Below are positions 1 through 26,742 of a stretch of 47,274 bases of DNA, in pieces. Location: contig JBFMCO010000042.1 in NCBI GenBank assembly GCA_040754495.1, positions 1 through 47,274 of the forward strand. The letters run 5' to 3'. The notes under the pieces are model-generated. The model searched no databases. It worked only from the letters and a program-made list of their open reading frames with translations, and had not been told where the DNA came from. The position numbers were made by a program, and so were the translations under genes. This stretch comes from Candidatus Micrarchaeota archaeon (lineage in GTDB: Archaea > Micrarchaeota > Micrarchaeia > Anstonellales > Bilamarchaeaceae). Position 1 is the stretch's first letter. Each line of letters begins with the position of its first letter.

Positions 1-65
1 TGCCTTAACTCTTCAACGGATATTTTGGGGAGGAATTCATCTCCTTTTGGTAGATGCCAGACCAT
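1..65 (-). CDS. 5' end of a gene running off the left edge (MVWHLPKGDEFLPKISVEELR...), product unknown
   Basis: Manual translation: ATG at 65 and 21 open codons to the window edge. A TATA-like run (atttataaaa, 87-96) lies ~22 nt upstream on the minus strand. Too short to assign. Confidence 0.5.
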   Translation of the reverse strand, partial: MVWHLPKGDEFLPKISVEELR

Positions 66-121
66 AGATAGTATCTACGGAGGACAATTTATAAAAGTTC
101 GTCTAATTTTGTCCTAGACTA

Positions 122-3117: not shown

Positions 3118-3459
3118 ATGGTCAGAGCCAATATCCCTTCGAAAATCACGCCTGGCGGCGGCGCGAAGCCGCCTGAGCACGACGAGTCGGACATAGACGA
3201 ATTGGAGAAGGTCGCCCTCGAGAGGGCGAACAAGGCGCTATCCGCCATAGAGAACGCCATCGCGGTGTGGGAGCAATCGGCTGAGAAGCCGGACGAGCTG
3301 CGGCCGAGGATAAACCGGCTCAAGGCGATACACGACGCCCTGGCCAACTGGGAGAAGAAGGTGCTGAAGAGCATGGGAAAACCGGACATGGCATCCAGGA
3401 TAGAGAACCTGCGGGAGTTCAGCGACATCTGCTTCACGTACTCCCGCGTCCATGGGTAG
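3118..3459 (+). CDS. small alpha-helical partner protein 1 (paralog of 26404-26742)
   Basis: 113 aa. About 34/76 identities to 26404-26742 over the core (W..EKPD.LR, HDAL..WE.K.L.SMG, R.E.LREF). Stop is 6 nt before the G1 ATG. Confidence 0.9.
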   Translation: MVRANIPSKITPGGGAKPPEHDESDIDELEKVALERANKALSAIENAIAVWEQSAEKPDELRPRINRLKAIHDALANWEKKVLKSMGKPDMASRIENLREFSDICFTYSRVHG

Positions 3460-3465
3460 TCGTAT

Positions 3466-6400
3466 ATGGCACAAACCCAGAGAGGCGGAGCGCCGGGAAG
3501 ACGCGTCGAGACGGCAGAGCAGGAAGTCCTCAGGGAGCTTGCGCTGCCGCTTCCGACCGTCAGGGCGCCGCCTCCGGACGTGCTCAGGCCGCTGCAGACA
3601 GCAATCAGCGCCGCGGAAGGGAGGGTTAACGACTTATTCAGGCTCGGGCCGGAAGTGGACCGGCGGGTCGGCGTTAGCCCGGACAGGGAAAGGAGGCGCG
3701 AGGGGGAGCAGGAGAGGGCGAGGGCAGAGGAGAGGGCTGCCGAAGTGCCGCGCGTCAAGGGCTATCTGGATGTCATAAGGGGGCAGCAGCTCGGGGGCCT
3801 CGAGCAGCATGCCGAGCGGATTTACCAGACGGTCACCGAAGCGGACAGGCTGATACGGGCGGGAAGGAGGGAGGAGGGCCTCAGGCTCTACGAAACCGTC
3901 CGCCCGCAGGTCGGGCGGCTGTACCAGCTGCTTCCGATTGCCAGGGACATCGCCACGTCGGGCCTGCCCGAGGAGCAGCAGCGGACGCTCATCGGCGGGG
4001 CGAATGCGGCCATGTATTTCTATTCGCAGGGGCAGGCCGCGCGGGGCGACATCATCATGCAGAACCTCGAGACCTTCTCGAGGCACAGGGACACTCTCAT
4101 GCGGCCCGAGGCCCGGCTCGCAAGGATGACGATAGTGGCGACCGTCGAGAACCTGTCCGACAGGAGAAGGAGCATCACCGAGGAGAACCTTGGGCGCGCG
4201 CAGAGGGACGCGACCCAGATGGAGACCACCCTCACCCAGGCAGAGAGCGAGAGGAGGGAGCTCGCGGCCCAGGCGTTCGCCCACCAGTCCGAATCGCTCT
4301 ACACGTTCTACGGCACGGCTTCCCCGGAGATGAGGCAGCGCATCGACCAGGCGAGGGAGTACCTGGACGGCCTCGCTACGAGGCTCCGCGCAGGCGAGAC
4401 GGTTACGGACGAGGAGCTGCGCAGGGGCGCGATGCTGACGCAGGCCATGCATCTTGGCATCGGCGTGCTGGACGGCATCGAGTCCACGACGGAAAAAAGG
4501 CAGGTGGAGAGCGTCTATCTGGCCGCGTTCGACGTCCTGCTCACTGGCGGGAATATCGACACCCACAGCTCGATAATGCTGGCCGCGCAGGACATCACCG
4601 GCCCGCGGGGAAACGCGGCGCTCCGCCGCTCCCTTTCCACGGCCGCGACTGCATACAGCACGGCGCTCCGCAGCCCGGATGCGACCGCCGACAGGAAGCA
4701 GGCTGCGGAAGGCGCGCTCATCGGCGTTTATGCAAGGCACGTTTCAGGGAGGCTCGGGACTGCATCGTCAAGCCTGACCGGGGACATGAGGACGAGGGCG
4801 GATGCTCTCGCGGCGCCGCTCACCGAGCACCCGGAGACCGCGACGCTCGACCAGCTCCGGTTCGCGAGGGCCGGGACCGAGGTGCTGGAGAGCAGAACGA
4901 GGCATTTCGGAAGGGCGTTCAACCCGTCAGCGCCCGTGCGCACCGGCGCCGACGCCATATACGGGCGCGCGCTCGATTCGCTCCAGAGCGGCGGCAGCGT
5001 GGACATCGCCATGGCGCAAAGCAGCCTCGCCGAGAGGTACGTCCAGACAGGGGACGAGACGAGGAGGACGAGGCTGGAGGGGCTCTCGGGACGCCTTGCG
5101 CAGAACCCGCGGGAGCTGAGCAGCGTCATGTTCTACATCGACGCGGATGCGCGTTCGCAGGAAATCAGGGACGCCCTGCCCTCGCTTCCTGCTGCGGCGA
5201 GGGCGCAGGGACAGCGGCTGCTGGAGGGCCTGGATGCCATGATGGCTACGATAGCCAGCGGGCAGCCGCTCGTCGATGACGGCAGGGTCCTCCAGGCGAA
5301 GACGGAAATGCTTGCAAGGATGGAGAGGGACGCGGGATTCTCCCAGCAGATAGAGCAGACCGCGAGGGTCCTCATGATGCAGACGCCCGGCATGACGAGG
5401 GACCAGGCGCTGACCGAGATAGCGAGGGCCCAGGCGACAGAGGCCGAGATGCGCAGGGGGGAGGAGATGCTCACCACGCTCTCGACCATGACCGACCTCG
5501 TGCGGTCCGCGCGCGGAAACCCGGCGAGGCAGGCAGAGATTGCGGAGATATTCTCGGTCGGCGTTGACGCGCTGCTTGCAAGGAACACGGCGAGGGCCGC
5601 CACCATACGGCAGACGGCTGCGCTTTATCCGCGCTTCGCGACCGACGCCGACCGGCGCTCGGTGCTCGCTGCGGTGCGCGGCCTCAGGGACGGCACGGTG
5701 CAGGAGGAGAATTTCGGCGCTTACATGCAGGTCCAGAGCCAGAGGGCCGAGTTCGAAAGCAGCATTACCGACCCGGCCCTGAAGAGGAACTTCCGCGCTT
5801 ACATGGACCTTGCAGCGCTTGCTGCGCTCCGCGGCGACAGGCTCGAGAGGGAATCCGTACTTGACCTGGCCGTCATGTACGCAAGGTGGGCCTCGGTTCC
5901 CGCGAACCAGGGGGGCGTCGCGCTCATGGAGGCGCGGAGCCGCGGGATGGAATTCGTGCAGCAGAGGCTGGGCGACTACCGGCGCAACCCGGACATACTT
6001 GCAGGAAGGAGGCTCATAGACGCCGGCCAGGCAAGGAGCTGGACGCCGCGCGCCGGGACGATTACCGCTGAGAATGCGCCGCTCACCGCAGCCATACTCG
6101 GCGAGGGGAGCATCAGCGAGGCCGTTGGAGGCGGGGACCGCGTCGCCGGCGTGAGCGCACTTACGGCCCTTCGCAGGGACACTTACACCCATCTTGCCGC
6201 GTCCGAGGACGCGGACTGGGAGAGGAGCCTCGCGCGGCTGGAAGGCCGCACGCCGGCGGAGCAGAGCGCGGTGGAAAGGAGGTGGACGCGTGAGGCAGCG
6301 CGGCTGCGCCGCGAGGCCGCGAGCGCGCGGGCGAGGGGCCAGGAGGCGCTCGCGGTGCATTACGAGCGCCAGGCCGAGCTGGTGGACCCGCAGTTCATGC

Positions 6401-9400: not shown

Positions 9401-12400
9401 ATCTTGCAGGCGCAAGAGAGGATTTGCGGCTCTCCGTGCCATTCGAAGTCAGGAGCGGCCGGCTCTACGACCCTGATACAATCACGCGCTCCAACCTCTC
9501 GGACATGCAGTACTGGCAGGGAGTCCAGGAAACGGTGGAGATAGGCGGGAGGATAATCGTCGGCGGGCTGAGCATAGCCCTCGCGCCGGTCACGGGTGGA
9601 GCCTCGCTGGTCGGCGTCGTGCTGCTCGGAGCCGAGCAGGTGGGGCAGGGCTTCGAGATGCGCGCGCAGGAGGGAAGATGGACCGGCCGCGCGGTCTTCA
9701 CTGTCGTCATGGGCGGCGTGTCAATGGTATTGCCGTTCACGGTTTATCTTGCGGAAGCGAGCCAGGTGGCCCAGGCGGTGAACCTTGTCGCGCGCGGGGC
9801 GACCGAGGCCGAAATCGCGCTTGCCGGGGCGACCATGACCTCGAGGCTTGTCCAGGCCGGCGGCCTCTTATACATGGGCGTCGGCATGGGGGATTACCTC
9901 ATCAACCAGCTGCCGGGCGAAATCGACGCCGTGCAGCGCGGGGACAGGCTCTGGTGGCAGGCCGCGGCCGGCGGTCTCTTCCAGACAATCCAGCTTGCGC
10001 AGGTGGGCATCTCCACCTACCGGGGGGCCCAGGTGCAGAGGCAGGGCGGCATACCGGTCTACCGCTCCTGGGGACGGCAGGTGTTCGAGGCGCTCACGAT
10101 GGGCGAGGCGTTCTACACGCGCGAGCAGATGTCGGCCGCGCGCGCGTACCGGACGATGACGACGGAACTCGGCGCGCTTCCCGCCCCTGCGCGTGCATCA
10201 TACGAGGCTTACAGGACCGCACTCGGCGAGCGCGGAATACAGCTTCCCCCCGCGGACCAGGCGCGGCTTCTGACCGGATACCGCGAGGCCGTCGGCCGCG
10301 ACTCGACCATGACCTTCGAGCGCTACGTGCAGACGCCGGAGTACAGGGCAGGAGTGCATGAGCAGGCTTACAACGCTTTCGGCGAGGGAAGGGTTGGCGC
10401 TCATCAGCTCAACGACGAGGAATTCACGTACATGTGGGAGCGCTCGCACGGCTCGCGCGACTCGGCCCAGGCCGAGGCGAACGTTGCCACCGTGAGAGGG
10501 AACGAGCGGATGCAGGCCGGCGAGGCCGCCCTGCGCGACGTGTTCCAGGGGAACAGGACGCGCGCGAGCTTAGACCCGCACGAGCGTGCGTATGTCGAAT
10601 CAAGGCTGCAGGGCCGCCCGCCTACCGAGGCGCTGGCTGCTGCGGACGCCGCAGCCCCGCCGACCAGGGCCGGGGACATGCGCGCCCGCGGCGAGGAGGC
10701 CGCGAGGACGCGCGAGTTCACGCAGGCCAAGGATTTATACGAAGGCGAGATGATCCCCATAATCCCCGGGGGCGCCGAAGAGACGACGTACAGCCACCCG
10801 TCCGAGCCGGGCGTCCAGTATCCGCGCGACCAGATGCAGGCCGCGCGCGACATAGCCGCGACAGCGGAATTCATGATACGGAACGGGAACAGGCTTCCGC
10901 CAGGCATAGCCGCGGACAGCCCGGTTGCTGCACGGGCGCGCGAGCTTGCAGGCACTCCGGAATCGCCGACAGCGTTCAGGCAGTTTGCTGAGCGGCCGGC
11001 AGAGCAGGGGGGGCCGAACCGCGGCGCGCAGATGAGGCTCGCGCTCGAGCAGAGCGACAGGATGCCGCAGTTTGCAGAGAATGCAGTTGACCATGGCATA
11101 GCCTCGACGATGGAAGGGGCGGCAAGCGCGCGCGACCTGAATCAGGCAGAGAGCGGCTCAGCGACGGTCAGGGCGCTTTCGCTTGGGGAAGGATATGGCG
11201 AATTCACGCGCGGCACCCTCACAGAGCAGAGGGCGCGCGAGCTGGGCATAGGCCCGGATGAGATGGCTCTCTTCCAGAGGATGAGGGGCGAGAACGCGTC
11301 GCCGCGCCAGGCCGGCGCGGAGTTCGCAAGGAGGGCGGCTGCCGAGACCAGCGAGAGGGCGCTCGGCGATGCGGTGCATACGGAGTTCAACCAGAGGGCA
11401 GGAACCTTGGCCGAGCCGGCACGCGGCGCTGCGGCGGTAAGGGCCGAGAGGCTCACGGAAGCGTATCATGATTATAATGAGATTAACCTTTCCAATCTCG
11501 GCGCGCCCGAGAGGGCCGCGAGGATTAACGAGGTGCGGACTAGGCTCGGCCTCAGCGACGCCGAGCACGGGTTCCTGACGGCCCGGCTGGGGCTCGAGCG
11601 CGCCGAGGTCGGGCAGGACATCGCAAGGGCGGCCCTCGGGGAGATTCCGCTCGAGAGGCCTGCTGCAGCGCCGCGCGGCGAGGAGGGAAGGACCGGGCCG
11701 AGACCCGAGGAGGCCCCGCCCGTATCGCGGACAGCTGCGATGGAGGCCGAGGTCGGCAACATACGCGGGAGCGAGGCGCTCGAAGCCGGGCTGCGCGGCG
11801 CCTCCGCGGAGGTCGTACGCATAGCGCGCGTGCTCGAGGCGATGGCGCCCGGCGACACGGTGCTCAGCCAGCAGAGGCTGGGGGAGCTTGCAGCCGAGCA
11901 TCCGGAGTACGCGAGTCACATCGAGGCTTACAACAACGCGAGGCCTGAGGAAAGGCCTTTCCTGGCCCGGAGATATGCGGAGGAAATCGCGTTCGGGAGG
12001 AGCTCGCGGGCATTCGAATCCGTGGCCGGACAGCGCGTCACCGGACGGCAGGCGAGCGTCGAGATTGTCGAGGACGCAAGGCTGTTCCACAGGGCCCTGA
12101 ACGGCAGGGACATGACGCCGGCAGAGATGAGCCGCATAACCACCGAGCACTTTGACAGGTTTGAGCGGCTGAGGAGGGCGGGAATGGGCGAAGCCGATGC
12201 CATCCTCCAGGTCGGCCGCGAGATGAGGACCGAGCGCCTGATGAGCGAGCGCGGGATGAACCGCGACCAGGCGACAAGGTTCGTCAATGACGAGGCCGCG
12301 AGGCCGCACGACGTGCCGCTGCGGCCGGAGGAGGGCCTCGGCGAGCAGGACTTCAGGGCCATGCCGTCCGAATACAACACGAGGACCATCACGCTGCCCG

Positions 12401-15400
12401 ACGGCTCGACCACCACGCTAGCCGACGCGCAGAGGGCCAGGCTCATCCGCAGGATTGACAACACCGAGGACTCGGTCGGCTCCACGGCAGGCGTCTGGGT
12501 CGCAGAGATAATGGTGAACGGCCAGCCGAGGACCGTGGCCGTCAAGGTGTTCAAGGACCCGTACGTTCCTGGCGGACAGCAGAGGACGGCCCAGCACTGG
12601 GAGAACCTTTTTGAATTCGTCACGGGCCACCCGGCAAGGGCAGGCGAGCATGCGGAGATGGGCGAGGCCGGAAACCTCTCGGCAATTTCCGGCATGACGT
12701 TCAGGTCAGGCGACGGGAGGGAGCTTCCTGTCGGCCCCGGATTCTACGGCTTCGTGAACGTGGATGGCAACATCGCGGTCGCGATGGACCTGCTGCCGGG
12801 CATGTACATCGGAGACATGAGCCCGACGCAGATACGCGAGTTCGTCCGGCCTGACACTTACGCACAGATACAAAGAATCGGAGAGACGCTCCAGGCGAAC
12901 GGATACGGGATGCATGACTTCCAATTCATAGTCATGTTCCCGCCCGAGTCCGCGATACCGACCGGGCTTACCGGGGCCGCGCGCAGGCAGTTCATAGAGA
13001 ACTGGCGCACGACAATAAACGGCAGGGAGGTCCGCGCAGGGGACGTCGTGCTCATGGATGCCGGCGGGCTTTACCGCGCGGCAGACGAGCCTATGTCCAC
13101 GTTCAGCCCCATAAGGGAGGCGGAAAGGGCGCGCAGCACCGCGGACCAGGTGCTCGTCAACGACGCGCTTGCGAGGACAACCGCGACGGCAGCGGACGCG
13201 AACGCGCCGGGCAGGGCCCAGGCGCAGGCAGACCTGCAGGTCATGGAAGGGTTCATGAGGGAAGTCGAACCGATGGTGAACGCCAGGGACCCCATGGCCG
13301 AAGTTACGCGCCGCTACATGATAAAGAGCGACAGGGCGGACGCCGCTGCTGCAAGGCTCGAGCAGATTCGCGCGAGCGACCCGGCACGGGCCGAGGCAAT
13401 CGAAGGGGCATTCAGGAGATTCGAAAGGGAAGCAGGGCTGCCGGAAGGAAGCATGCTGCCGATGAGGGCTGAGGAAGCTGCCACCGTGCCGCGCCGCGCT
13501 GCGGTTGGCGCTGAAGAGACTACTGTAATAGAGCCCACGAGGCCGTCAAGGGCCCCGACGCCCCCGCCTGGCGAGGGGACGGTCCCGGGAAGGGGCAGGA
13601 GAGGGCCGCCGCCAACCGAAGAAAGGACTACCGCTCCGACAAGGAGGCAGCCTCCGCCAGAGGAAAGGACTGGCACTCCGACCAGGAGGGAGCAGCCGCC
13701 TGGCGAAGGGACAAGGCCGGAACGCAGGGGAGCGCCGGGCGAGAGGCCCGCGGAAGGACCTCCTGCGGCGGAGGTCACCGCTGCTCCGAGGTCGCTCCTT
13801 GACGACATCAGGGGCGGCGCGGGATTGCGCGATGCCATTGACAACCTGTTCGGAGTGGACTCCAACCTCGCAAGGAGGCTCGAGCGCAGGCTCGAGGTGC
13901 TTGAGCAGGACCCGATGTTCGCCGAGCGGTTCAGGGTGGCGACGCCGGAGGAGCGCGCGATAATCGTGGAGTCCCTGGCGAGCGGCATGTCGCCGGCCGA
14001 GGCGTTCCGGAGGATGGCAGCCGAAGGCGCCCCGAGGACAGCCGCGGAATTCACTGCATATGCGGACAGGCTCGCCGGAATGAGCGAGCCCGAGCGCCTC
14101 CTCAGGATACAGGACATAGCCAATTCTGACCCGAGGCTCGGGGAGGCCCTGCTCAGGATGAACCGCGAGACCAACCCGGCAAGAAGGGCGAGGCTCGCTA
14201 CAGAATGGGAAGGGGCGGTGCACGAGCGTGCGCGCGTGCAGGAGGCCCAGGAAGCAAGGGCCGCGCGGACGGCCGATGACCTCCGCACCCAGGAGCTGGA
14301 CATGGTGACGCGGGCCGCGCAGGCGAGGGGTCTTGATACGAGCATCATGACCGAGCTGTACTCGAACGGCGGCACCGAAGGCAGGATGGCCGTGCTCGAA
14401 GGGCTCGGCGTGGACATGTCCCGGTTCAATGCGGAGAGGACAAGGATAGAGGCCATGCCTCCGGGCGATGCCAGGAACACGGCGCAGCAGCGCCTCGACA
14501 CGATGGTGCATGGATTCTTCGAGCTCATGACAAGGGGCGGGCTCGAGGGGCACATAGCTGCCATGCCCGGATACGAGGGCGCGACTGTTACCGGCGTCGA
14601 ATTCCGCGGCGGCATGAGGGGCGTCTATGAGGTAACGCTTTCCAACGGGAGGAGGGTATTCGTAAAGAGCGAGGACGTCGCGCCGGCGCGGTTAGGGCGC
14701 GACCTTGCTGTGGCCGAGGGAATGTGGACATCCCGCATACACGAGGGATACTCATACGACACCGGCCTGACTTACCGCGACGGCACTCCCGTGAGGCAGG
14801 AGTTCGGCATACTCGAGGATATACACGACGTCCGGGGCACCCAGATAACGATAAGGCTGCCTGACGGCTCGACAGAGCAGGTGCGTGTCGTCGGAGTCTC
14901 GATGCTGAGGGACGAGGTGCTAAACGTGCCGCAGCCCCCGCCGCCGGACGCTTCTCCAGAGGTGGTGCGCGCATACGAGCAGAGGCTCGCGGCATTCCTC
15001 GCAGACCCGGTCGTGCAGGAGTTCTACAGGCTCTCCGGGAGCGAAGGGGGGAGGGACAGCATATTCCAGGCCTGGAGGGCGTACCAGGAGATGTCCAGGC
15101 GCGCGGTGCTCGGCGACAGGTTCGCGAGGAACACCGCTGCAGTCATCGTTGAGCGCGCAGACGGCAGCAGGGTTCTTACATTCCAGCCAATAGACATGGA
15201 CGCTGTCGGCTGGAGGGTCGGCTCGAGGCCGGACGGGACGCCGGGCTTCACCGGGCTGAGGACTGATTTCGCCGAGGCGAACGTAGACTTCCTCACCAAG
15301 TTCTCGAGCGCCACGGCGGCCGCGTCGGGCCACGGCCTTATCGGCGGCCGCGTGGACGGGGGGACTCTGCTTGGCAACATGTACAGCCCCACGGCAGAGC

Positions 15401-18400
15401 GCGGGGCCGCGATACCGCCAGACTCGCCCGCAACAAGGCAGAGAGTCGGCGAGATACTTGATGGCCATGACGGCAGGTACTTCGGCGCGGGCTTCGACAC
15501 GACATCCCCGGACATGCCGGCAGTCGGCGAATTCATATCACACGGCGGCAGCGACAGGCCGATAGGAAGGAGCGACGGCCGTGTCGTGCTGCATGCTGAT
15601 GACATGCGCGGCGTTACGGACGCAGCGGCGACGCCGGCCGAGCGCCAGGCGTTCGACCAGGCAGTGCGCGACGAGCTGACGCGCAGGTTTGGCGGAGGCG
15701 GGCGGCCGCCTGGAGGCGGAGGGGGCGAGCCACCGCCCGGTCCGCGAACGACGCCCGAGCGCAGGGGGGGAAGGCCTCCAGGCGAAGGGCAGCCGCCTGG
15801 CGAGAGGACTACCCCCGGAAGGCGCGGGGCGGCCCAACAGGAGCAGCGCGCTGAAGAGAGGACGATGACCGTCCGCGACAGCGACATAGTGGAGGAGAGG
15901 ACCGCTACAGGGGCAAGGCGCGGCCGGGCGGCGGAAGAGAGGACAATCCCTGTCACGACGGACATGATTGTGGAGGAGCGGACAGTCCCGAGGGCGCCGC
16001 CCGTTGAAGAGAGGACCACTCCGCAGAGAGGAGGAGCAGAGCAGCCGCAAGAAGCCACAGTCCCGCGGCCTGCAGAGGCGCAGCCTGCCGTGGCGCCCGC
16101 TCCGGTCACGCGGATGTCACCGGTGGACCTTGTCCAGCCTGACAACCTCGGCGCATTCGCAGGCAGGCTGAACGCAGGCGATGCTACGGCAGCCGCGGAC
16201 CTTGCCGCGATGCCGCCTCAGGTGCGCGAGCAGGTGGGCATTTTCCAGGAAAGGTATGCAGCCGCGGCAGGGAACGCACAGGAGCAGACGCGCATCGCAA
16301 CCGAATACGCGGGCAGGATTCTCGCAAGCAGCCTCGCATCGAGCCCCGAAACGCTCTGGCGGTTCGCGTCGAACTTCAGGTTCGGCCTTGAGAGCAGCCA
16401 GGTCACGCCGCAGGCAAGGGCCATGCTTGACAGCCTCCCGCCCGCAGTGCGCGACCTGGTGATTGAATTCGGCGGCAGGCTTTACAGAGAGTGGAGCCAC
16501 AGGGACGCCCTCGCGCCCGGATATGCCGACAGGATGACGCGCGCGGTCGATGCCGCGGCAGTCGCTGACATGTACGCGCTCCACACGCAGGGCCGCCCGC
16601 CAGCCAATCCGGCGGACAGGGCGGCGATGGAGTTCATCACCGCTGGCGGCACGAGGACGATAGACCCATCTACGCCGGCCGGAGCAAGGGAGATAGACGC
16701 GGCCGTGCAGTTCAGGAGGAGCGCCTCGCGGCTCGTCGAGAGGGACGGAGCCGCGGCGCTGGAGTCCGCGAGGACGCTCGGGGAGAGCGTCAGGACCGGC
16801 GCCAGGCCGGCCGATTTCCAGGGCGCGCTTGCGTACGATGCCGTGCAGGATTTGGCGCGGGCGAGCGCGCAGCAGGCCGGCAGGGCGGTTCCCGGCGCGC
16901 AGGACTACTTCAATGCGGCGGCGACATTCAGGCTTTTCGAGCAGGGCGGGCTTCCCGACACGGCCACGGTGAGGACTCCGCACTTTTCCGGAGGCAACGA
17001 AGCCCTGGAGCAGCACGGCACCGCGTATATAGACTGGGGAGGCCTGCAGGTCGAAGTCCACATTTTCCGGGACAGGGTGAACGTGTTCAGCGTGGAGCCC
17101 GCGGCCATCGGCGAGATGGGCTGGCCTACGAGCGGGATGAGGGAGGCGCTCGCCCGGTACGCGCAGAGGCGTCTTCGGGGGCCGCTCGAGCGCGCCTTCA
17201 GGGGGACGATGCGCCAGATTCCGAGGGAGACCGGAGGCGGGTACGACGTCTGGAGGCCGGTGATGGATTCCATCCAGGCCACAACGCTCGACCTGACGCA
17301 GGGGAGGCTCGCTACGGCACCGCCGGCCGTTGCAAGATACACGCCCGAGGAGATTGTGCGCGTTCACAGAACCGCTGATGTCGCCGCGAGGGGCGAGGCC
17401 GCGGCGGCGTTCCTTGAGATGTCCCCGCAGGACCAGCAGAGGACGCTCGGCCTGCTGCGCGAGAGGGCGAGGCCGCTTGAAGAAAGGGCGGCCGCGCTGG
17501 AGGCAGAAGCCAGGAGGCTCGAGGCCCAGGTCATGCCGGAATATAATAGTATACTTGAGAGGAAGGCAGCCGCGGAGGCCGAGGCAACGAATTATCAAGA
17601 GCAGGTGAGGGCGCTCGACCCGCAGATAAGGGCGGCAGAGCAGAGGGGAGACATGGCAGAGGTCTCCAGGCTGCGGGCCGAGAGGGGCAGGCTGGACGGC
17701 CTCGCGGATGAGAGAAGCACCGCGGCCAGGATGCTGGAGGGCGAGGCCGGGCGGCTGATGCGGCGCGCGAACGACCTGCGCGAGCAGGCGGGCGAGCTGC
17801 GCGCAATGGCCGGCTACTGGAACGAGCAGGGGATGTACTTCAGGGAGCTTGCAGGCCTCGGAGGAGAGATTGGCACTTACCTTTCACAGAGATACGGGGT
17901 GCCGCGGGAGGAGCTCGCGCGCGCATATTCCGCCCAGCCGACCACGGCGGAGGCGAGGCGGGCGCTTTATGACGCGCTCGGCATAAGGCTCGGCGAACTC
18001 CCGGACGCCGCGGTGAGGAGCGACGCCTACAGAAGTTTCACCAGCCTCGCTGATGACCCGTACATCGCAGGCATGATACTCACCGGGGACCTGCTTCGCA
18101 ATGTCGAGGGGATAGTGAGGCCGGACATAGACCCAACAAGCCTCCAGCCCGGAGACCGGGTCGTGGTGCGCGGAATAGACTTCCAGAACGGCCTCGTCGG
18201 GGCGTACCGGCTCACCATTGAAGTCGTTGACAGCCAGGGCAGGCCGCGCACCTTCAGGGACGTGAGCGGGAGGGAGCGCACCTCGATGACCCTCTTCGCC
18301 AAGAGGCAGGGCCTCAGCCCCGATGCCACGGGAAGCGAGGGCGGCAGGCTCACCGGAGCGCCCTCGCCGGACATACTTACAAGAGGCGCGGACGGAAGGG

Positions 18401-21400
18401 CGCTCGTCTATGTCTCGCCCGAAGGGCAGAGAATAGAGTACGGCCTCATGCGCGACATCCGGGACTTCCACGGCCAGATAGATGCCGGAAGGGCACTCAC
18501 CGACTCGCAGGGAAGGCCTGCCAGGGTGGATGTAAGCGTGGATGCCGCCGAAGACCTGTACTCCATAGTATTCTCCTCCGGCAACCCGAGGACGACCGAG
18601 GCGCGGGACCAGCTTTTCGGCGAGTTCCGCGACCATCCGGAGCAGTTCCTCGAGGCCCTCGGCTATGCACAGACAGGCTTCACTGCCGCTGGATTCTACG
18701 ACAGGCACGAAGGCAACGTGTGGGCGATGTGGCTGCGGATAAGGAACCAGCCGGCAGCCGAGGCTGCGCACATCGCGCACCAGCTCGAAAGCCAGGGCTA
18801 CCGCGTGAGGGACAACGGGGATGGCACATGGAGCTTCCTTCGCTTTGGCGCCATAGACTCGGACACGTTCGGCCAGTATCGGGCATTCAGCATGCCCGAC
18901 GGGCAGATTTCCCTCGCCCCGATGAGGGACCAGCTGGTGACGGACCTGCACAGGGTGTTCGTGCACCTGACATACGAAATGAACCAGGCCGAGATAGCCC
19001 GGGCGCACGCCGAAGGAAGGCCGCCAAGGCTTCGGACCGTGGAGGAAGTCACCACCATGGCCTTCGGCGAGAATATGGACGGCCCGTGGATGCGGGGCAT
19101 GAGGCGCTGGGTTTCGGAATTCGCCCCGGACACCCCTGCAGGGGCGCGCTTCAGGGCGGACATGCATTCCCTTTTTGACGGCTACAACGGACAGCGTTCA
19201 GGCATGGGCTTTGCGATGGAGGGGGCGCAGCTCGGCCGCTTCGAGGCGCAGGGCTATGAAGAGATACCATCGGCGCTCAACGGCATGCCGACCACCCACC
19301 TGGACGGCATAGACGGCCGCACGAGCTTCATGGCGAACGGGCGGATGGCGACCAACCCGAGCATAAGCGAGGCCGCAAGCCCGCGCGTCCGGGCCGCCCT
19401 GCCTGACGGACAGGACAGATATCTTGTGCGTATTGACGACATGGGCCGCTCAGAGCGCAGGCAGTTCCTGAGCAGCCTCGAAGCGAGCGGAGTGAGCACC
19501 GCGAGGCTGAGGACCTCGGCCGTCGGCGGAAGGGAATACATAGTCTTCTCAGACTCTGCGGCGATACCGCAGGCGATGTACGGAAGGACTGTCGCGGTGA
19601 GGCGCGATGGAGACCGGGTGTTCGTCAATAATTATGGCGCTCTGCTCACCGCTATTCCGGAGGGAAGGGCCGCGTACGTAGTGCCGCTTGCAGGCATGGG
19701 CAGAGTCGAGGCCCGCAGGCTCAGCAGCGCGCCCGGCGCCAGGGTTCTCGAGCTCAGCATCGGAGGCGAGCAGAGGTTCGTGGTGTTCGACAGCCCGCAG
19801 GCCGTGCCGGAGAGGCACAGGGACAGCGCCATGCAGGTCCGGAGAAGCGGGAGCACCATACTAGGAGATGCCAGGATGCGGGAGAGTATGGGCATAATCA
19901 ATACCAGGGACATCGGAGCAGCCCCGATGTTCGACGGCATGATGAACATGGGAGATGCCGGATGGACCGGGCTCTGGCAGGGAGTCAGGGACGGGGTGCT
20001 GAGGGCAGAGGCAGGCGCCAGGGCGGCTCCGGATGCCGGCTTCCTGCAGAGGAGAGTGCCGAACCCTGGCGACACGCAGGCGCTTCCTCCGGAATACGGA
20101 GGGCCCGGCCGGACGATTCCTGTTTCTGAAAGCGACCTCATCCCGCAGGGCAGCCCCCCGAGGCCGCCCCCTCAGCCGCCCGCAGGGGGCGGCGGGACCA
20201 GGAGGGGAGTCGCCCCGCCGGCAGAAGAGGGCCAACCCCAGCCGGCCAGGAGACAGCCCCCACCACCGCCGCAGCCGAGTGAAGGCAGGGGGACCGTGAG
20301 GATGGCTCCGCTCCCTCCTGCGGACCAGATGGCCATGCCCGGGCCGGCGCAGGTCCCGCGCGAGGGGGGAACACCTGGCGAACGCGCGGATGCGGCACAG
20401 ATGGCAGGACGGCTCATCGCCGGCGACCCGAACGCCCGGACGCAATTCACCGGGAGCTCCCAGGGAATGCAGGATGCCGTAGGCTTTGAGCTGGCGCAGC
20501 AGCTCAACCTGACAAGGCCGGGAGACATTGCCAATTTTGCAAGGGACGTCGCCCTCTACGAGCTCCACAGGACCGGGGAGAGACCCATCACCGACCCTGC
20601 CGTGCTTGCGCGCGTCGAGAGGAACGCAAGCCTGCACGCGCTCCTTCCCGAGAGGGTGAGGACGGCTGTGAGCGGCCTTGCCGGGAACAGCGCGTTCATA
20701 CTCAGCGCGAGGGGCACCGACAGGGCATTCGAAAGATATGTGGGCAACCGGAGGCTGGGCGGCGCGCTCGTAGGCGGGGCGCAGCGGGAGATTGCCGGGG
20801 CGGTCAATGCGCACTTTGCGGCCGGCCAGGGAGCTGGGCCCAGGATTCAGATTCCCCAGCAGGAGCTTGCACGCATCTCCGCAGACCTTGATGCCGCAGT
20901 GAGGACGGGCCAGCCGACGGGCTCTGTTGTGGCGATAACCGCATTCGCCGAGCAGGGCGTCTATCGGGTGATAATCGAGCGCGCGGACGGGACCCGCACG
21001 CCTTTCATATACAGGGAGCGCCCCTTCAGGCAGGAAGCTTTCGGCTCGGAGCTTTATGCCGCGGCCGGGCAGCAGGCACCGCATTTCATACGCCTGGGCG
21101 AAGGGCCCGACGCGAGGGCGCTGCAGGAGGTCGTCGGCGAGATGGACTTCCGCACGGCGCTGGCGCAGGGCAACCTGACCGAAGCAGAGAGGCAGTCGCT
21201 ATTCCGCGAGGCCGGGAGGCTCGGCATGATTGATTATGCGCTCGGCCTGCCTGATTCCCATGCTGGGAATTATGTCGTCGTGAGGGGGGAGGGAGGCACC
21301 CTCAGCCTCATGAGGATTGATTTCGAGAATGCCGGCATCGGGTGGGGGAGGGGCATACGCCCGGATGGCAGCGTAGGGAACAGGGACCACGTGATTTTCT

Positions 21401-21909
21401 TCAAAATGATAACGCGCGAGATAAAGCGCGGCACCTATACGCCCGGGGACATCGCGGCGTTTTTCGAGGGGATAAGGGAGGGGGCCGCAGAGGTCGGGAG
21501 GATGGATGCCGACGCTCTGACCGCGGTTGCCGGAAGATACGCAGGCACCGTGCTGAGCAGGGACGCGCAGGGCACGGCCACTTTCACCGTGGACCAGGCC
21601 CTGATAGACGCGATGGGGGCAAGGATAAGGGGCATCCAGGGCGACCCGGTCGCAGCGCGCGTCCAGATGCTGGAGTACATCTTCGTCCCGCTCAGGGAGG
21701 CGCTCGGCCGCGGGAACGCAGAGGCGATTGCGGAGATAGTAGGGGTGCTGCGGACGGAAATCCATGACGTGCCCACCGACGTGCTCCAAAGATGGAAAAT
21801 CAACTTCCAGGGGCTCCTTCAGAGCGCAAGGACCGAAGAGATAAGGACCGGGCTGAGAGGCGTGCTGGGAGTCGTGGATGAAGAACTAGGAAGAAGGGGA
21901 CCCACCTGA
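3466..21909 (+). CDS. giant protein G1 (6147 aa): helical scaffold, hydrophobic translocation-like region, four kinase-fold domains
   Basis: Uninterrupted 18.4-kb ORF, collinear with G2. Kinase motifs: VAVK/HDFQF/DAG (12535-13059), VFVK/DRFARN/IDMD (14656-15200), LFAK/DRHEGN/IDSD (18292-18864), DSHAGN/IDFE (21253-21327). Hydrophobic segments at 9514-10020. Confidence 0.92.
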   Translation: MAQTQRGGAPGRRVETAEQEVLRELALPLPTVRAPPPDVLRPLQTAISAAEGRVNDLFRLGPEVDRRVGVSPDRERRREGEQERARAEERAAEVPRVKGYLDVIRGQQLGGLEQHAERIYQTVTEADRLIRAGRREEGLRLYETVRPQVGRLYQLLPIARDIATSGLPEEQQRTLIGGANAAMYFYSQGQAARGDIIMQNLETFSRHRDTLMRPEARLARMTIVATVENLSDRRRSITEENLGRAQRDATQMETTLTQAESERRELAAQAFAHQSESLYTFYGTASPEMRQRIDQAREYLDGLATRLRAGETVTDEELRRGAMLTQAMHLGIGVLDGIESTTEKRQVESVYLAAFDVLLTGGNIDTHSSIMLAAQDITGPRGNAALRRSLSTAATAYSTALRSPDATADRKQAAEGALIGVYARHVSGRLGTASSSLTGDMRTRADALAAPLTEHPETATLDQLRFARAGTEVLESRTRHFGRAFNPSAPVRTGADAIYGRALDSLQSGGSVDIAMAQSSLAERYVQTGDETRRTRLEGLSGRLAQNPRELSSVMFYIDADARSQEIRDALPSLPAAARAQGQRLLEGLDAMMATIASGQPLVDDGRVLQAKTEMLARMERDAGFSQQIEQTARVLMMQTPGMTRDQALTEIARAQATEAEMRRGEEMLTTLSTMTDLVRSARGNPARQAEIAEIFSVGVDALLARNTARAATIRQTAALYPRFATDADRRSVLAAVRGLRDGTVQEENFGAYMQVQSQRAEFESSITDPALKRNFRAYMDLAALAALRGDRLERESVLDLAVMYARWASVPANQGGVALMEARSRGMEFVQQRLGDYRRNPDILAGRRLIDAGQARSWTPRAGTITAENAPLTAAILGEGSISEAVGGGDRVAGVSALTALRRDTYTHLAASEDADWERSLARLEGRTPAEQSAVERRWTREAARLRREAASARARGQEALAVHYERQAELVDPQFMHEAFTVARSAYAEYRTEERAAIAFSDEADRARDADITNVTTLATRTREMIGEMPEAQRAEYEARLRQAGTDQAALRTLYLDVMRVRSEQLINGLPEGLQATARQRLRDAGSDEAGMRNVYVSLLRTHAGMHAARGEELRTAAMRIRDDMASLDRGVRLTTVHRTSGRFQLAVSIRTSMAVAGGYDCDFLGRPIEREETTPGGETRRVRVPLTRPRAAQLTAQASAASRVGRGAVDFQVAIERRRDRANAVERAQLTQDIGRFKTLLTTMIDSLPEGNRQQYRDLMTQAGDDPAMLQEIFRRLGNEGVRTQDDQGHEYADIEDRAGDARRAIGLRYAERFGAADALSSSSRSDFRGGVLQARNWLSDQAVARLYNSSTGTQIIGVGTLDLSYTSAETGQPVTVQVTNITPSSELIDNMIQKLPPSSEREALRQRLLAMPAGPAGNDQRQALFSSLLDREVYDPRRAPGTGVTFRAVIERGDSFYYHASEYDQQIAEARALGRSGRGSEAQAALDRIEGDMGRSEIASRSDARELGARHTAWETRRREEGLRGRYTEGLPNQEEHPRSYGEAQDRNDAVTGDHVRLRDGSRTSLLGLYEGSMERGAADMDRLADRHGGVRDTILAGGQMLQPTVEVAVALAAALADSPRDHTLANGRTYAQMLNDLTLPGSPQEQAQRAAALYQAIMDNPQDFAAAARIIREGHDDRGYTYVSGLSSDLVTQLDVTADEMATYGRQRERERTWAFADTHLRRGQSEHRLGDSSHRYRRATSERHREDEARLGWAPHYQTAETHWENAAREYEMAATMLLEGNDTRFTDIVVRNEPVTAPMFEFRGRAAREWHYDGPAYVTVYSENRGTFGTLGRLQPRVLNIPEEMYSLTRREAREMASYTDDDIRGEARQKYDQMGISRVRLELATYGIGTRWHEEEGGGYWGLYRTNMTPEAQRLANEAFQHGEALWDQVSGRIFAHSSDWGDDYVMGFLNRTADRFASDLSAMAAAEGENLAGAREDLRLSVPFEVRSGRLYDPDTITRSNLSDMQYWQGVQETVEIGGRIIVGGLSIALAPVTGGASLVGVVLLGAEQVGQGFEMRAQEGRWTGRAVFTVVMGGVSMVLPFTVYLAEASQVAQAVNLVARGATEAEIALAGATMTSRLVQAGGLLYMGVGMGDYLINQLPGEIDAVQRGDRLWWQAAAGGLFQTIQLAQVGISTYRGAQVQRQGGIPVYRSWGRQVFEALTMGEAFYTREQMSAARAYRTMTTELGALPAPARASYEAYRTALGERGIQLPPADQARLLTGYREAVGRDSTMTFERYVQTPEYRAGVHEQAYNAFGEGRVGAHQLNDEEFTYMWERSHGSRDSAQAEANVATVRGNERMQAGEAALRDVFQGNRTRASLDPHERAYVESRLQGRPPTEALAAADAAAPPTRAGDMRARGEEAARTREFTQAKDLYEGEMIPIIPGGAEETTYSHPSEPGVQYPRDQMQAARDIAATAEFMIRNGNRLPPGIAADSPVAARARELAGTPESPTAFRQFAERPAEQGGPNRGAQMRLALEQSDRMPQFAENAVDHGIASTMEGAASARDLNQAESGSATVRALSLGEGYGEFTRGTLTEQRARELGIGPDEMALFQRMRGENASPRQAGAEFARRAAAETSERALGDAVHTEFNQRAGTLAEPARGAAAVRAERLTEAYHDYNEINLSNLGAPERAARINEVRTRLGLSDAEHGFLTARLGLERAEVGQDIARAALGEIPLERPAAAPRGEEGRTGPRPEEAPPVSRTAAMEAEVGNIRGSEALEAGLRGASAEVVRIARVLEAMAPGDTVLSQQRLGELAAEHPEYASHIEAYNNARPEERPFLARRYAEEIAFGRSSRAFESVAGQRVTGRQASVEIVEDARLFHRALNGRDMTPAEMSRITTEHFDRFERLRRAGMGEADAILQVGREMRTERLMSERGMNRDQATRFVNDEAARPHDVPLRPEEGLGEQDFRAMPSEYNTRTITLPDGSTTTLADAQRARLIRRIDNTEDSVGSTAGVWVAEIMVNGQPRTVAVKVFKDPYVPGGQQRTAQHWENLFEFVTGHPARAGEHAEMGEAGNLSAISGMTFRSGDGRELPVGPGFYGFVNVDGNIAVAMDLLPGMYIGDMSPTQIREFVRPDTYAQIQRIGETLQANGYGMHDFQFIVMFPPESAIPTGLTGAARRQFIENWRTTINGREVRAGDVVLMDAGGLYRAADEPMSTFSPIREAERARSTADQVLVNDALARTTATAADANAPGRAQAQADLQVMEGFMREVEPMVNARDPMAEVTRRYMIKSDRADAAAARLEQIRASDPARAEAIEGAFRRFEREAGLPEGSMLPMRAEEAATVPRRAAVGAEETTVIEPTRPSRAPTPPPGEGTVPGRGRRGPPPTEERTTAPTRRQPPPEERTGTPTRREQPPGEGTRPERRGAPGERPAEGPPAAEVTAAPRSLLDDIRGGAGLRDAIDNLFGVDSNLARRLERRLEVLEQDPMFAERFRVATPEERAIIVESLASGMSPAEAFRRMAAEGAPRTAAEFTAYADRLAGMSEPERLLRIQDIANSDPRLGEALLRMNRETNPARRARLATEWEGAVHERARVQEAQEARAARTADDLRTQELDMVTRAAQARGLDTSIMTELYSNGGTEGRMAVLEGLGVDMSRFNAERTRIEAMPPGDARNTAQQRLDTMVHGFFELMTRGGLEGHIAAMPGYEGATVTGVEFRGGMRGVYEVTLSNGRRVFVKSEDVAPARLGRDLAVAEGMWTSRIHEGYSYDTGLTYRDGTPVRQEFGILEDIHDVRGTQITIRLPDGSTEQVRVVGVSMLRDEVLNVPQPPPPDASPEVVRAYEQRLAAFLADPVVQEFYRLSGSEGGRDSIFQAWRAYQEMSRRAVLGDRFARNTAAVIVERADGSRVLTFQPIDMDAVGWRVGSRPDGTPGFTGLRTDFAEANVDFLTKFSSATAAASGHGLIGGRVDGGTLLGNMYSPTAERGAAIPPDSPATRQRVGEILDGHDGRYFGAGFDTTSPDMPAVGEFISHGGSDRPIGRSDGRVVLHADDMRGVTDAAATPAERQAFDQAVRDELTRRFGGGGRPPGGGGGEPPPGPRTTPERRGGRPPGEGQPPGERTTPGRRGAAQQEQRAEERTMTVRDSDIVEERTATGARRGRAAEERTIPVTTDMIVEERTVPRAPPVEERTTPQRGGAEQPQEATVPRPAEAQPAVAPAPVTRMSPVDLVQPDNLGAFAGRLNAGDATAAADLAAMPPQVREQVGIFQERYAAAAGNAQEQTRIATEYAGRILASSLASSPETLWRFASNFRFGLESSQVTPQARAMLDSLPPAVRDLVIEFGGRLYREWSHRDALAPGYADRMTRAVDAAAVADMYALHTQGRPPANPADRAAMEFITAGGTRTIDPSTPAGAREIDAAVQFRRSASRLVERDGAAALESARTLGESVRTGARPADFQGALAYDAVQDLARASAQQAGRAVPGAQDYFNAAATFRLFEQGGLPDTATVRTPHFSGGNEALEQHGTAYIDWGGLQVEVHIFRDRVNVFSVEPAAIGEMGWPTSGMREALARYAQRRLRGPLERAFRGTMRQIPRETGGGYDVWRPVMDSIQATTLDLTQGRLATAPPAVARYTPEEIVRVHRTADVAARGEAAAAFLEMSPQDQQRTLGLLRERARPLEERAAALEAEARRLEAQVMPEYNSILERKAAAEAEATNYQEQVRALDPQIRAAEQRGDMAEVSRLRAERGRLDGLADERSTAARMLEGEAGRLMRRANDLREQAGELRAMAGYWNEQGMYFRELAGLGGEIGTYLSQRYGVPREELARAYSAQPTTAEARRALYDALGIRLGELPDAAVRSDAYRSFTSLADDPYIAGMILTGDLLRNVEGIVRPDIDPTSLQPGDRVVVRGIDFQNGLVGAYRLTIEVVDSQGRPRTFRDVSGRERTSMTLFAKRQGLSPDATGSEGGRLTGAPSPDILTRGADGRALVYVSPEGQRIEYGLMRDIRDFHGQIDAGRALTDSQGRPARVDVSVDAAEDLYSIVFSSGNPRTTEARDQLFGEFRDHPEQFLEALGYAQTGFTAAGFYDRHEGNVWAMWLRIRNQPAAEAAHIAHQLESQGYRVRDNGDGTWSFLRFGAIDSDTFGQYRAFSMPDGQISLAPMRDQLVTDLHRVFVHLTYEMNQAEIARAHAEGRPPRLRTVEEVTTMAFGENMDGPWMRGMRRWVSEFAPDTPAGARFRADMHSLFDGYNGQRSGMGFAMEGAQLGRFEAQGYEEIPSALNGMPTTHLDGIDGRTSFMANGRMATNPSISEAASPRVRAALPDGQDRYLVRIDDMGRSERRQFLSSLEASGVSTARLRTSAVGGREYIVFSDSAAIPQAMYGRTVAVRRDGDRVFVNNYGALLTAIPEGRAAYVVPLAGMGRVEARRLSSAPGARVLELSIGGEQRFVVFDSPQAVPERHRDSAMQVRRSGSTILGDARMRESMGIINTRDIGAAPMFDGMMNMGDAGWTGLWQGVRDGVLRAEAGARAAPDAGFLQRRVPNPGDTQALPPEYGGPGRTIPVSESDLIPQGSPPRPPPQPPAGGGGTRRGVAPPAEEGQPQPARRQPPPPPQPSEGRGTVRMAPLPPADQMAMPGPAQVPREGGTPGERADAAQMAGRLIAGDPNARTQFTGSSQGMQDAVGFELAQQLNLTRPGDIANFARDVALYELHRTGERPITDPAVLARVERNASLHALLPERVRTAVSGLAGNSAFILSARGTDRAFERYVGNRRLGGALVGGAQREIAGAVNAHFAAGQGAGPRIQIPQQELARISADLDAAVRTGQPTGSVVAITAFAEQGVYRVIIERADGTRTPFIYRERPFRQEAFGSELYAAAGQQAPHFIRLGEGPDARALQEVVGEMDFRTALAQGNLTEAERQSLFREAGRLGMIDYALGLPDSHAGNYVVVRGEGGTLSLMRIDFENAGIGWGRGIRPDGSVGNRDHVIFFKMITREIKRGTYTPGDIAAFFEGIREGAAEVGRMDADALTAVAGRYAGTVLSRDAQGTATFTVDQALIDAMGARIRGIQGDPVAARVQMLEYIFVPLREALGRGNAEAIAEIVGVLRTEIHDVPTDVLQRWKINFQGLLQSARTEEIRTGLRGVLGVVDEELGRRGPT
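12233..13465 (+). repeat. ~1.2-kb intergene duplication (kinase-1 module), second copy at 38374-39595
   Basis: Protein about 80% identical by eye, including a 53-aa identical run. Identical DNA tracts 12976-13031 = 39117-39172 (56 bp) and 13048-13121 = 39189-39262 (74 bp). Confidence 0.95.
13465..13790 (+). repeat. Pro/Arg/Thr-rich low-complexity linker with PPGEG and EERT repeats (within G1)
   Basis: Translation shows PPPGEGT, TEERTT, PEERTG and QPPGEGT. Confidence 0.75.
15690..16110 (+). repeat. Gly/Pro-rich linker with five EERT-x repeats (within G1)
   Basis: Translation shows AEERTM, VEERTA, AEERTI, VEERTV, VEERTT, plus GERTT and PPGEG. Confidence 0.8.
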
Positions 21910-23205: not shown

Positions 23206-23228
23206 ATCCTTGTTTATGGCAGGAAGCG

Positions 23229-23238
23229 TATATAAATA
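23229..23238 (-). promoter_or_regulatory. TATA-like box for the TIM-barrel gene
   Basis: tatttatata on the minus strand with an A-rich upstream stretch, ~25 nt before ATG 23205. Confidence 0.5.
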
Positions 23239-23272
23239 GTGTGGTTTTTTGTTAAAAAAATTGTAAGTATGT

Positions 23273-26403: not shown

Positions 26404-26742
26404 ATGGATTCGCCCGACTCGAGGCGGGATAATGGCCCGGCGCAGGAGCCTGTTCCGGAGTTCGAACTGGTCACGGAGAATAACATAGAACGGACTGAGA
26501 GGGACATACTGGTCAGGGTGAACAGGAGCATCTCGAGCTTGGAGTCCGCCCTGGCTGGCTGGGATGCCGCAAAAGAAAAGCCCGATGATTTGCGGGAGGA
26601 GTACGAGAGGTCCAGGCTCCTCCATGACGCGCTCGTGGACTGGGAAACGAAGATGCTCCGGTCCATGGGCGAGAGGATGGGTTTTTTCGAGAGGGTCGAG
26701 AGGCTCAGGGAATTCATCAGAATAGTTGAAAGATACGCATAG
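26404..26742 (+). CDS. small alpha-helical partner protein 2 (paralog of 3118-3459)
   Basis: 112 aa, ~45% identical core with 3118-3459. Stop is 8 nt before the G2 start. Confidence 0.9.
   Translation: MDSPDSRRDNGPAQEPVPEFELVTENNIERTERDILVRVNRSISSLESALAGWDAAKEKPDDLREEYERSRLLHDALVDWETKMLRSMGERMGFFERVERLREFIRIVERYA

Follow-up and report, generated by a model that had tools for sequence, protein, structure and literature searches.

Giant lysine-purged proteins with kinase-like modules in one family of Micrarchaeota

Contig JBFMCO010000042.1 of the Candidatus Micrarchaeota archaeon assembly GCA_040754495.1 is 47,274 nucleotides long, and the whole of this contig (C42) is referred to here as the window. 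The genome that holds it (G000) is metagenome-assembled, with 1.63 Mb of sequence, 80% completeness and a GC content of 59.5%. Two giant genes on the forward strand occupy most of the window: G1 (3466..21909), encoding 6,147 amino acids, and G2 (26751..46709), a mosaic paralog of G1 encoding 6,652. Each has a small partner gene immediately upstream on the same strand. The partner of G1 (3118..3459) encodes a helical protein of 113 amino acids with 10 Lys and 8 Arg and ends 6 nt before G1, while that of G2 (26404..26742) encodes 112 amino acids with 3 Lys and 16 Arg and ends 8 nt before G2. G1 is a member of a lysine-purged class of giant, cysteine-free multi-kinase proteins, predicted to be membrane-anchored, from one family of Micrarchaeota in the DPANN archaea. 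The lysine-purged state is called K-free below.

G1 contains 19 Lys (0.31%), 735 Arg (12.0%) and a single Cys. A sequence-only reading of the window had counted about 19 Lys (about 0.3%) and one Cys by hand, with about 10 Lys in the adjacent partner gene, and these counts are exact. G2 has 437 Lys (6.57%) and 3 Cys. Its lysine density is patchy, at 8–12% between residues 250 and 2000 and 2–8% in the C-terminal half, and the stretch with 11 Lys in 55 residues that had been picked out earlier is its maximum for a window of that size. Lysine deserts are recognised by at least 150 contiguous residues without lysine, by a depletion beyond base composition or chance, and by conservation of the depletion in homologs. 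The longest such runs in G1 are 1,033, 754, 604, 543, 479 and 467 residues, compared to a maximum of 148 in G2.

Neither chance nor base composition accounts for the depletion. The proteome baseline, 920 open reading frames of G000 filtered by GC content at third codon positions (GC3) against shadow frames, averages 4.9% Lys, 6.7% Arg and 1.2% Cys, so lysine is not proteome-wide as low as in G1; against this mean, the binomial probability of 19 or fewer Lys in G1 is 2e-104 (z = -16.7). When expectations are drawn from the codon-position base frequencies of G1 itself, 207 AAR codons are expected and 19 are observed, a ratio of 0.09. The corresponding ratios are 0.75 for Asn, 0.91 for Thr and 2.09 for AGR, with Asn, Thr and Met spanning 0.75–1.25. 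Lysine has been exchanged chiefly for arginine, with some Thr and Gln, and the sum of Lys and Arg per 1000 codons is 123 in G1 and 124.5 in ordinary genes of the genome. Synonymous usage is the same in G1, in G2 and in the genome (AGR 58% in G1 and 56% in G2; AAG 79% in both). It follows that G1 is a native gene and that the change targets a single amino acid.

The depletion might nonetheless be a by-product of high GC, of mutation bias or of a lysine-poor donor, with no selection involved. G1 is the highest-GC large gene of the genome, at 66.7% against 59.5% overall, and across genes the lysine fraction is negatively correlated with GC (r = -0.38). However, the GC3 of G1 (0.81) is usual for the genome, and much of its GC excess results from the Lys to Arg exchange itself. 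Regressions across genes predict 5.4% Lys for G1 on GC3 and 3.0% on total GC. Besides the AAR deficit and the unaltered synonymous usage, the catalytic lysines are kept, and the purge is also seen in a relative at 55% GC whose neighbouring genes have 5–14% Lys. A foreign donor is opposed by the family having been found only in Micrarchaeota. An origin without selection is thus extremely improbable, and the earlier statement that local GC does not explain the depletion holds.

The lysines that G1 keeps are informative. Only three are invariant in homologs: K3027 (VAVK), K3734 (VFVK) and K4946 (LFAK). The other 16 are sporadic and are frequently aligned to Arg in relatives. The three had been put forward as kinase beta-3 lysines, and they are the strand-3 lysines of three kinase-like modules, with the folds of the first two having been modelled and checked. 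Module 1 (residues 2918–3339; 12217..13482, forward strand) carries the K3027 codon at 12544–12546. The model of residues 2960–3260 (predicted local distance difference test score, pLDDT, 85) has RIO1 as its best fold match (Z 12.3, root-mean-square deviation (rmsd) 3.0 over 178 residues), and all 50 top PDB entries are protein kinases, including the effectors OspG and HopBF1 (Z 10.2–10.4). In the model K3027 falls on one of the strands of the N-lobe sheet (residues 61–70), and the lysine of the VA[VI]K motif is kept in 7 of 7 aligned homologs. The model thus predicts a RIO/ePK-type kinase fold for this module.

Module 2 (residues 3640–4090; 14383..15735, forward strand) is predicted to have a PI3K/PI4K catalytic-domain fold. 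Its K3734 codon is at 14665–14667, followed by a DRFARN motif at 15115–15132 and PIDMD at 15187–15201. The model (pLDDT 95.7) has PI3Kgamma, PI4KIIIbeta and Vps34 as its top matches by both Foldseek and VIA; the VIA alignment to PI3Kgamma has Z 12.6 and rmsd 5.4 over 260 residues, and values for the other two are similar. An alignment of 47 copies of the module, 15 from K-free and 32 from K-rich proteins, shows the ATP-binding lysine, the DRHxxN-type loop and the metal-binding aspartate of the PI3K/PI4K enzymes: K95 is nearly invariant, and D245, R246, N250 and D271 (the D-R-x-x-R-N loop and the Asp) are invariant. The K3734 column is Lys in 15 of 15 K-free copies and in 27 of 32 K-rich copies. 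In 12 of the 15 K-free copies this is the sole lysine of the module, the number of sporadic others per K-free copy ranging from 0 to 5.

Module 3 (approximately residues 4880–5350; 18103..19515, forward strand) is labelled kinase-like from motifs read in the translation: LFAK, with the K4946 codon at 18301–18303, then DRHEGN at 18700–18717 and IDSDTFG at 18853–18873. All 13 aligned homologs have K4946. The C-terminal domain (residues 5690–6147; 20533..21906, forward strand) has a kinase-like motif order as well, with DSHAGN and RIDFEN, but an Arg (FIYRE) is present at the position where the strand-3 lysine would be expected. The K-free protein P0012, the sole full-length homolog of this domain, also has Arg there. 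The domain may be either a pseudokinase or a case of lysine avoidance extending into an active site.

A hydropathy scan of G1 identified an internal hydrophobic hairpin at residues 2030–2096 (9553..9753, forward strand), which is a probable membrane anchor and has counterparts in G2 and in a further giant of the genome, on contig C22. Sequence searches find little in these proteins. Pfam gives no family for G1 or G2 at E <= 0.01, with only a sub-threshold M24 peptidase match, the PI3K/PI4K model PF00454 does not recognise G1, and a PDB sequence search with both giants has no match. The modules resemble PI3K, PI4K and PIKK enzymes, RIO-type kinases and the effectors OspG and HopBF1 in predicted fold, in the strand-3 Lys, in the DRxxxN-type loop and in the metal-binding Asp. 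They differ from known kinases in having no Pfam model, in their 9–17% identity to solved kinases, and in the presence of three to four modules in one chain of some 6,000 residues with a predicted membrane anchor.

Module 1 is shared with G2 (residues 3870–4288; 38358..39614, forward strand), where it is the part of the protein lowest in lysine, with 11 Lys in 419 residues (2.6%). The two copies are 82% identical as protein and 81.5% as DNA and differ by 108 synonymous changes over 414 codons, which means that the duplication or transfer did not happen very recently. As had been read from the two translations, the lysines of G2 in this module face other residues in G1. Across the 82%-identical module G2 has 13, of which three are common to both proteins and ten are R, T, G, N or A in G1, and G1 has no lysine at any module site where G2 lacks one. 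The implied direction of change was, however, wrong. Within residues 2918–3339 of G1 there are eight sites that are Lys in G2 only. At five of the eight, the outgroup P0007 (itself K-free and 69% identical) matches G1 with R, R, N, R and R, and at none of them does it have Lys. Because the outgroup sides with G1 and never with lysine, the alignment indicates a gain of lysines by G2 in this module, through R to K and N to K changes, rather than a loss from G1.

G1 is also not the exception that it had been taken for. The full-length relatives that it retrieves from other genomes are K-free in 5 of 5 cases (0.16–0.36% Lys); the depletion is conserved in these homologs. An exhaustive search of 1.84 billion proteins with module 2 found only 52 representatives. 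The lysine content of the 41 giants of the family with at least 2,400 amino acids, a few of which are near-duplicates, falls into two regimes, 18 having 0.08–0.43%, one having 1.06% and 22 having 3.8–10.6%. About half of the giants with this module are therefore K-free (19 of 41) and the others have normal lysine. Both states can occur in one genome. G000 holds G1 and three more K-free large proteins beside G2 and the C22 giant, and another genome (G157) holds one K-free giant and three K-rich. A check had been suggested of whether homologs split into K-free and K-rich clades. The split itself is real and sharp, but in the tree of the module the two states are intermixed, with 10 changes by parsimony, at least four of them forced by well-supported branches. 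If compositional attraction acts, the parsimony count would be an underestimate of the switches.

Homologs of G1 were found in only one family of Micrarchaeota, under the names Candidatus Micrarchaeota, Micrarchaeia and Bilamarchaeum. Among 401 sampled genomes of the phylum, the kinase-like module is present in 21 of 76 from the window's own family and in 0 of 324 elsewhere. No domain was found that is common to all K-free giants and missing from all K-rich giants. The segments of G1 that match K-free giants only (residues 2400–2850 and 5700–6147) are in at most one to seven relatives. Self-protection from an encoded lysine-modifying enzyme was considered and set aside, as there is no such K-free-specific domain shared by all K-free giants. 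The K-free relative P0006 (6,174 amino acids) has a precomputed match to the metallophosphatase family PF00149 that G1 lacks, which shows the giants to be mosaics whose enzymatic cargo varies. Pfam did not bear out a GNAT-like reading of the P0006 C-terminus.

The partner genes are not included in the purge. Homologs were located at 21 loci, the two of the window and 19 related ones, each immediately upstream of a giant. Lys outnumbers Arg in the partners of all eight K-free giants, with 8–17 Lys and K/(K+R) of 0.56–0.70, while the partners of K-rich giants range from 0.16 to 0.76 (n = 13). An inverse rule, in which a K-rich partner accompanies a K-free giant and a K-poor partner a K-rich giant, separated 14 loci and was broken by seven more. 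What survives is that the partners of K-free giants are never lysine-depleted. As in toxins of the AB type, the bias of Arg over Lys is therefore limited to the enzymatic part and the companion is normal. Such an exempt partner fits a component that stands outside the pressure on the giants. Protein-level selection against non-essential lysine in G1, as the sequence-only reading had proposed, is well supported: composition fails to predict the depletion, lysines needed for catalysis are retained, and the partner gene next to G1 is unaffected.

The purge extends to other genes of the genome. A K-free, Arg-rich cohort of 29 genes encodes 26,622 amino acids, 7% of the residues of G000, with 0.3% Cys. 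None of 15 cohort proteins (14 and G1) reaches a Pfam cut-off, compared to 8 of 10 random lysine-normal controls. The cohort includes GDSL-lipase-like and weakly M23-peptidase-like proteins, and a protein of 2,828 amino acids on contig C16 that defines a second giant family, unrelated to that of G1. With the G000 protein counted, this second family has 20 K-free members (0.07–0.42% Lys) and 10 with normal lysine (2.3–5.8%), with at least four forced switches. Its neighbourhood is conserved and adjoins genes for Trm56, phosphoglucomutase and PRPP synthase.

Three related loci of the second family (L081, L082 and L083) were compared. In L083 three consecutive genes have 0.25–0.32% Lys: a giant of at least 2,503 amino acids, a 794-residue GDSL-lipase-like protein and a protein of 2,867. 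Their counterparts in the sister locus L082 are at 2.9, 5.7 and 2.3%, whereas the lysine content of the housekeeping orthologs of the two loci is almost equal (7.7–13.9% overall). Between the relaxed protein P0070 and its K-free sister P0074, 32 of 65 Lys align to Arg, and at ten of these 32 sites all four K-free relatives have Arg. G000 has the same three-gene set with all members K-free, together with a small convergent gene (C49:5900-11137, C16:1-1989, C16:2412-10895 and C16:11051-11440, the small gene included). Wherever the second family was compared, its small convergent neighbour is at 11–14.5% Lys. Because linked genes switch together while their housekeeping neighbours stay as they are, the purge is a property of a functional gene set, under continuing selection and quickly reversed once selection lapses.

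Four right-handed beta-helix/NosD/DUF11 proteins of G000, of 1,348–3,413 amino acids (C15:3-10241, C67:13145-21055, C56:49727-56359 and C7:1854-5897), are probably classical surface proteins. They have 0.5–3% each of Lys and Arg and normal Cys, and form a compositional class apart from the Arg-rich K-free cohort.

The genes around the giants in the window have 2.8–10.9% Lys. The reverse strand at 122-1006 encodes an N6/N4 DNA methylase (PF01555, E 1e-49) that has 10.9% Lys; as the gene's GC content of 48% is well under the 63% of the contig, it may be foreign or part of a repeat-bounded element. A convergent gene for a xylose-isomerase-like TIM barrel (AP_endonuc_2, E 1e-19) at 21886-23319, on the reverse strand, overlaps the final 24 nt of G1, and Pfam matches neither of two small convergent open reading frames, at 23273-23878 and at 23888-24502. 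Window positions 1-127 are repeated, at 97–100% identity, at the ends of at least 12 further contigs from this genome (C67, C33, C29, C41, C14, C56, C30, C62, C31, C71, C51 and C43). This is a dispersed repeat at which the assembly breaks, possibly the end of a mobile element.

What the selection acts on is less certain than its existence. The purged giants may act where it is a disadvantage to expose lysine, most probably at the surface or in the interior of a host cell, where they would evade lysine-directed attack; this reading is given a probability of about 0.45. It is drawn from the nature of the proteins, orphans bearing enzymatic modules in a host-dependent symbiont, from the exemption of their companions, from the precedent of Lys-poor toxins and from the existence of an archaeal ubiquitin-like proteasome system. 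Micrarchaeota depend on host archaea (PMC8975820), toxin A chains poor in lysine and lysine deserts are precedents (PMC13696103), and archaeal ubiquitin-like modifiers target proteins to the proteasome through isopeptide bonds to lysine (PMC4895103, PMC4569737, PMC2948915).

What the sequences show is that purifying selection on the protein keeps removing lysine, with arginine as the main substitute, so that the total of positive charge is held, and that only lysines needed for catalysis escape. The state is all-or-nothing and toggles repeatedly among paralogs and orthologs, jointly across linked genes, with a return from R to K when the constraint lapses. In the proposed mechanism, contact-dependent delivery would bring the purged giants onto or into the host cell. 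At that site a covalent attack directed at lysine, whether tagging by ubiquitin-like proteins or small archaeal modifier proteins (SAMP) with degradation by the proteasome, acylation or cross-linking, would inactivate them if they carried exposed lysines. The lysine-rich partner, presumed to be a chaperone, would remain in the producer. K-rich paralogs such as G2 and the C22 giant would act without that pressure, or would have been released from it. The sequence-only reading had likewise suggested evasion of lysine-directed modification and different targets or compartments for the two paralogs.

Several points weigh against a host-side action. No result places G1 outside the producer cell, no translocation machinery is linked to it, and the hydropathy scan shows no N-terminal segment in G1 resembling a signal peptide. 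The K-rich paralogs are built alike, hydrophobic hairpin and kinase modules included, and to give them a separate compartment or target is ad hoc. G1 tolerates 16 non-conserved lysines. Genes for an E1-like ThiF, for a ThiS-like protein and for proteasome subunits are present in G000 as well, and insulation of the giants within the producer would account for the pattern equally well. A sparing of lysine is also plausible, as searches of the genus found argininosuccinate synthase but not the markers of lysine synthesis. We know of no archaeal ubiquitin-like system that acts against foreign proteins.

If the giants were never delivered, the purge could shield huge, slow-folding proteins from the producer's own SAMP or other ubiquitin-like system and proteasome, or from its lysine-modifying enzymes. 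The machinery is encoded in the genome, in the form of a ThiF-type E1 (135 bits), a ThiS-like protein and two proteasome subunits, and the giants are without signal peptides. Lysine deserts have been documented in proteins of the ubiquitin system, where they are thought to be protective (PMC10169902, PMC13696103). However, G2 and the C22 giant are equally large, of the same build and in the same cell, yet have 5–6.6% Lys, and a K-rich partner would face the same machinery. No domain is in all K-free giants and in no K-rich giant. On balance, protection within the producer is considered unlikely.

Supply of the amino acid offers another explanation. If the lineage makes arginine and not lysine, bulk proteins built ahead of or without supply from a host, for example those used for contact or attack, would be under selection to contain none, and K-rich paralogs would be made when host lysine is present. 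Markers of lysine, arginine and histidine synthesis were scored in 29 genomes of the genus. DapA and LysW are found in 0 of 29 and a LysA-type decarboxylase in 3, none of them G000, whereas argininosuccinate synthase (ArgG) is above the cut-off in 15, G000 included. A normal protein of 6,147 amino acids would take some 300 Lys. This sits poorly with the adjacent upstream partners, which carry 8–17 Lys in 8 of 8 loci, with the convergent gene of the second family at 11–14.5% Lys, and with a whole proteome that still has 4.9%. A near-absolute purge also demands strong selection at each site, for which the saving of one residue in 300 is insufficient. The histidine marker IGPD is not found in G000 (it is present in 7 of 29 genomes of the genus), yet His is alike in G1 and G2. 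The explanation is therefore distinctly improbable. Matches to KARI_N in the genus are weak and partial, in proteins of about 430 amino acids, and are not taken as evidence of branched-chain amino-acid synthesis.

The hazard might instead be chemical. At the cell surface or in the medium the lysine amine would be open to carbonylation, glycation, carbamylation or a lysine-specific protease, and arginine would hold the charge without that danger. The lipase-like and weakly M23-peptidase-like proteins of the cohort would be expected outside the cell, the giants are free of cysteine too, and K/(K+R) is only 0.13–0.17 for two of the genome's beta-helix surface proteins. The other two, however, are at 0.46 and 0.53, and the K-rich giants bear the same hydrophobic hairpin. 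A constant chemistry also does not predict the coordinated relaxation of linked genes in a sister lineage whose housekeeping genes are unchanged. An extracellular hazard of this kind is quite unlikely as the cause.

Action of the purged giants at a host site can also be put in a more specific form. A set of effectors, comprising the multi-kinase giants, the lipase-like proteins and other orphans, might be delivered to the cytoplasm of a host archaeon, where it would be invisible to SAMP/Urm1-type tagging and the proteasome. The switches would then record changes of host, or the gain and loss of this defence. In this detail the proposal is possible but doubtful. If it is true, archaea would be in an arms race with one another over ubiquitin-like protein tagging.

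Known systems share parts of the pattern. Ricin A, cholera toxin A1 and pertussis S1 (PMC13696103) have few or no lysines and an extreme bias of Arg over Lys in the enzymatic part and not in the companion, which GC does not explain. The A chains of AB toxins that translocate from the endoplasmic reticulum are bacterial or plant proteins of 20–30 kDa that reach the eukaryotic cytosol via endoplasmic-reticulum-associated degradation, whereas the giants of the G1 type are archaeal, have 2,800–7,300 amino acids with all domains purged, and alternate in state among paralogs. Lysine deserts, as in San1, Slx5 and other ubiquitin-system proteins and in pupylating Actinobacteria and their phages (PMC10169902, PMC10665810, PMC13696103), resemble G1 in their long runs without lysine, their conservation in homologs and their link to lysine tagging. 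Most of those published are disordered regions of proteins that otherwise contain lysine, while in G1 the purge reaches into folded enzymatic domains as well, as far as the catalytic Lys. In a term search, archaea are absent from one of the lysine-desert papers (PMC10665810) and have one passing mention in another (PMC13696103).

The SPEARE proteins of Nanohaloarchaeota (PMC10266531) are likewise giant proteins of DPANN symbionts and are presumed to mediate contact with the host. Their serine protease, adhesion and restriction endonuclease domains were not found in G1 or G2 by Pfam, so these giants are not SPEARE proteins by domain content, and no lysine purge of SPEARE proteins is described in the literature searched. 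A search that combined DPANN with lysine-depletion terms found no paper on lysine-free giants of Micrarchaeota. New here are the contrast between G1 and G2 on one contig, the polarity of the change, the bimodality across the family with its repeated switches, and the joint switching of linked genes.

To our knowledge, the manipulation of hosts by DPANN archaea is largely not understood and no delivered effector has been identified. With the purge, the concept of the lysine desert, so far applied to disordered regions of short length and to small toxin chains, comes to cover whole folded proteins of at least 6,000 amino acids. Sister pairs such as G1/G2, P0067/P0072 and P0070/P0074 are natural material for experiments. 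A binary, strongly selected signature that is confined to orphan giants and switched jointly with linked genes offers a way to nominate host-interaction proteins of uncultured DPANN archaea from sequence alone. It also makes testable whether ubiquitin-like and other lysine-directed systems of archaea act on foreign proteins.

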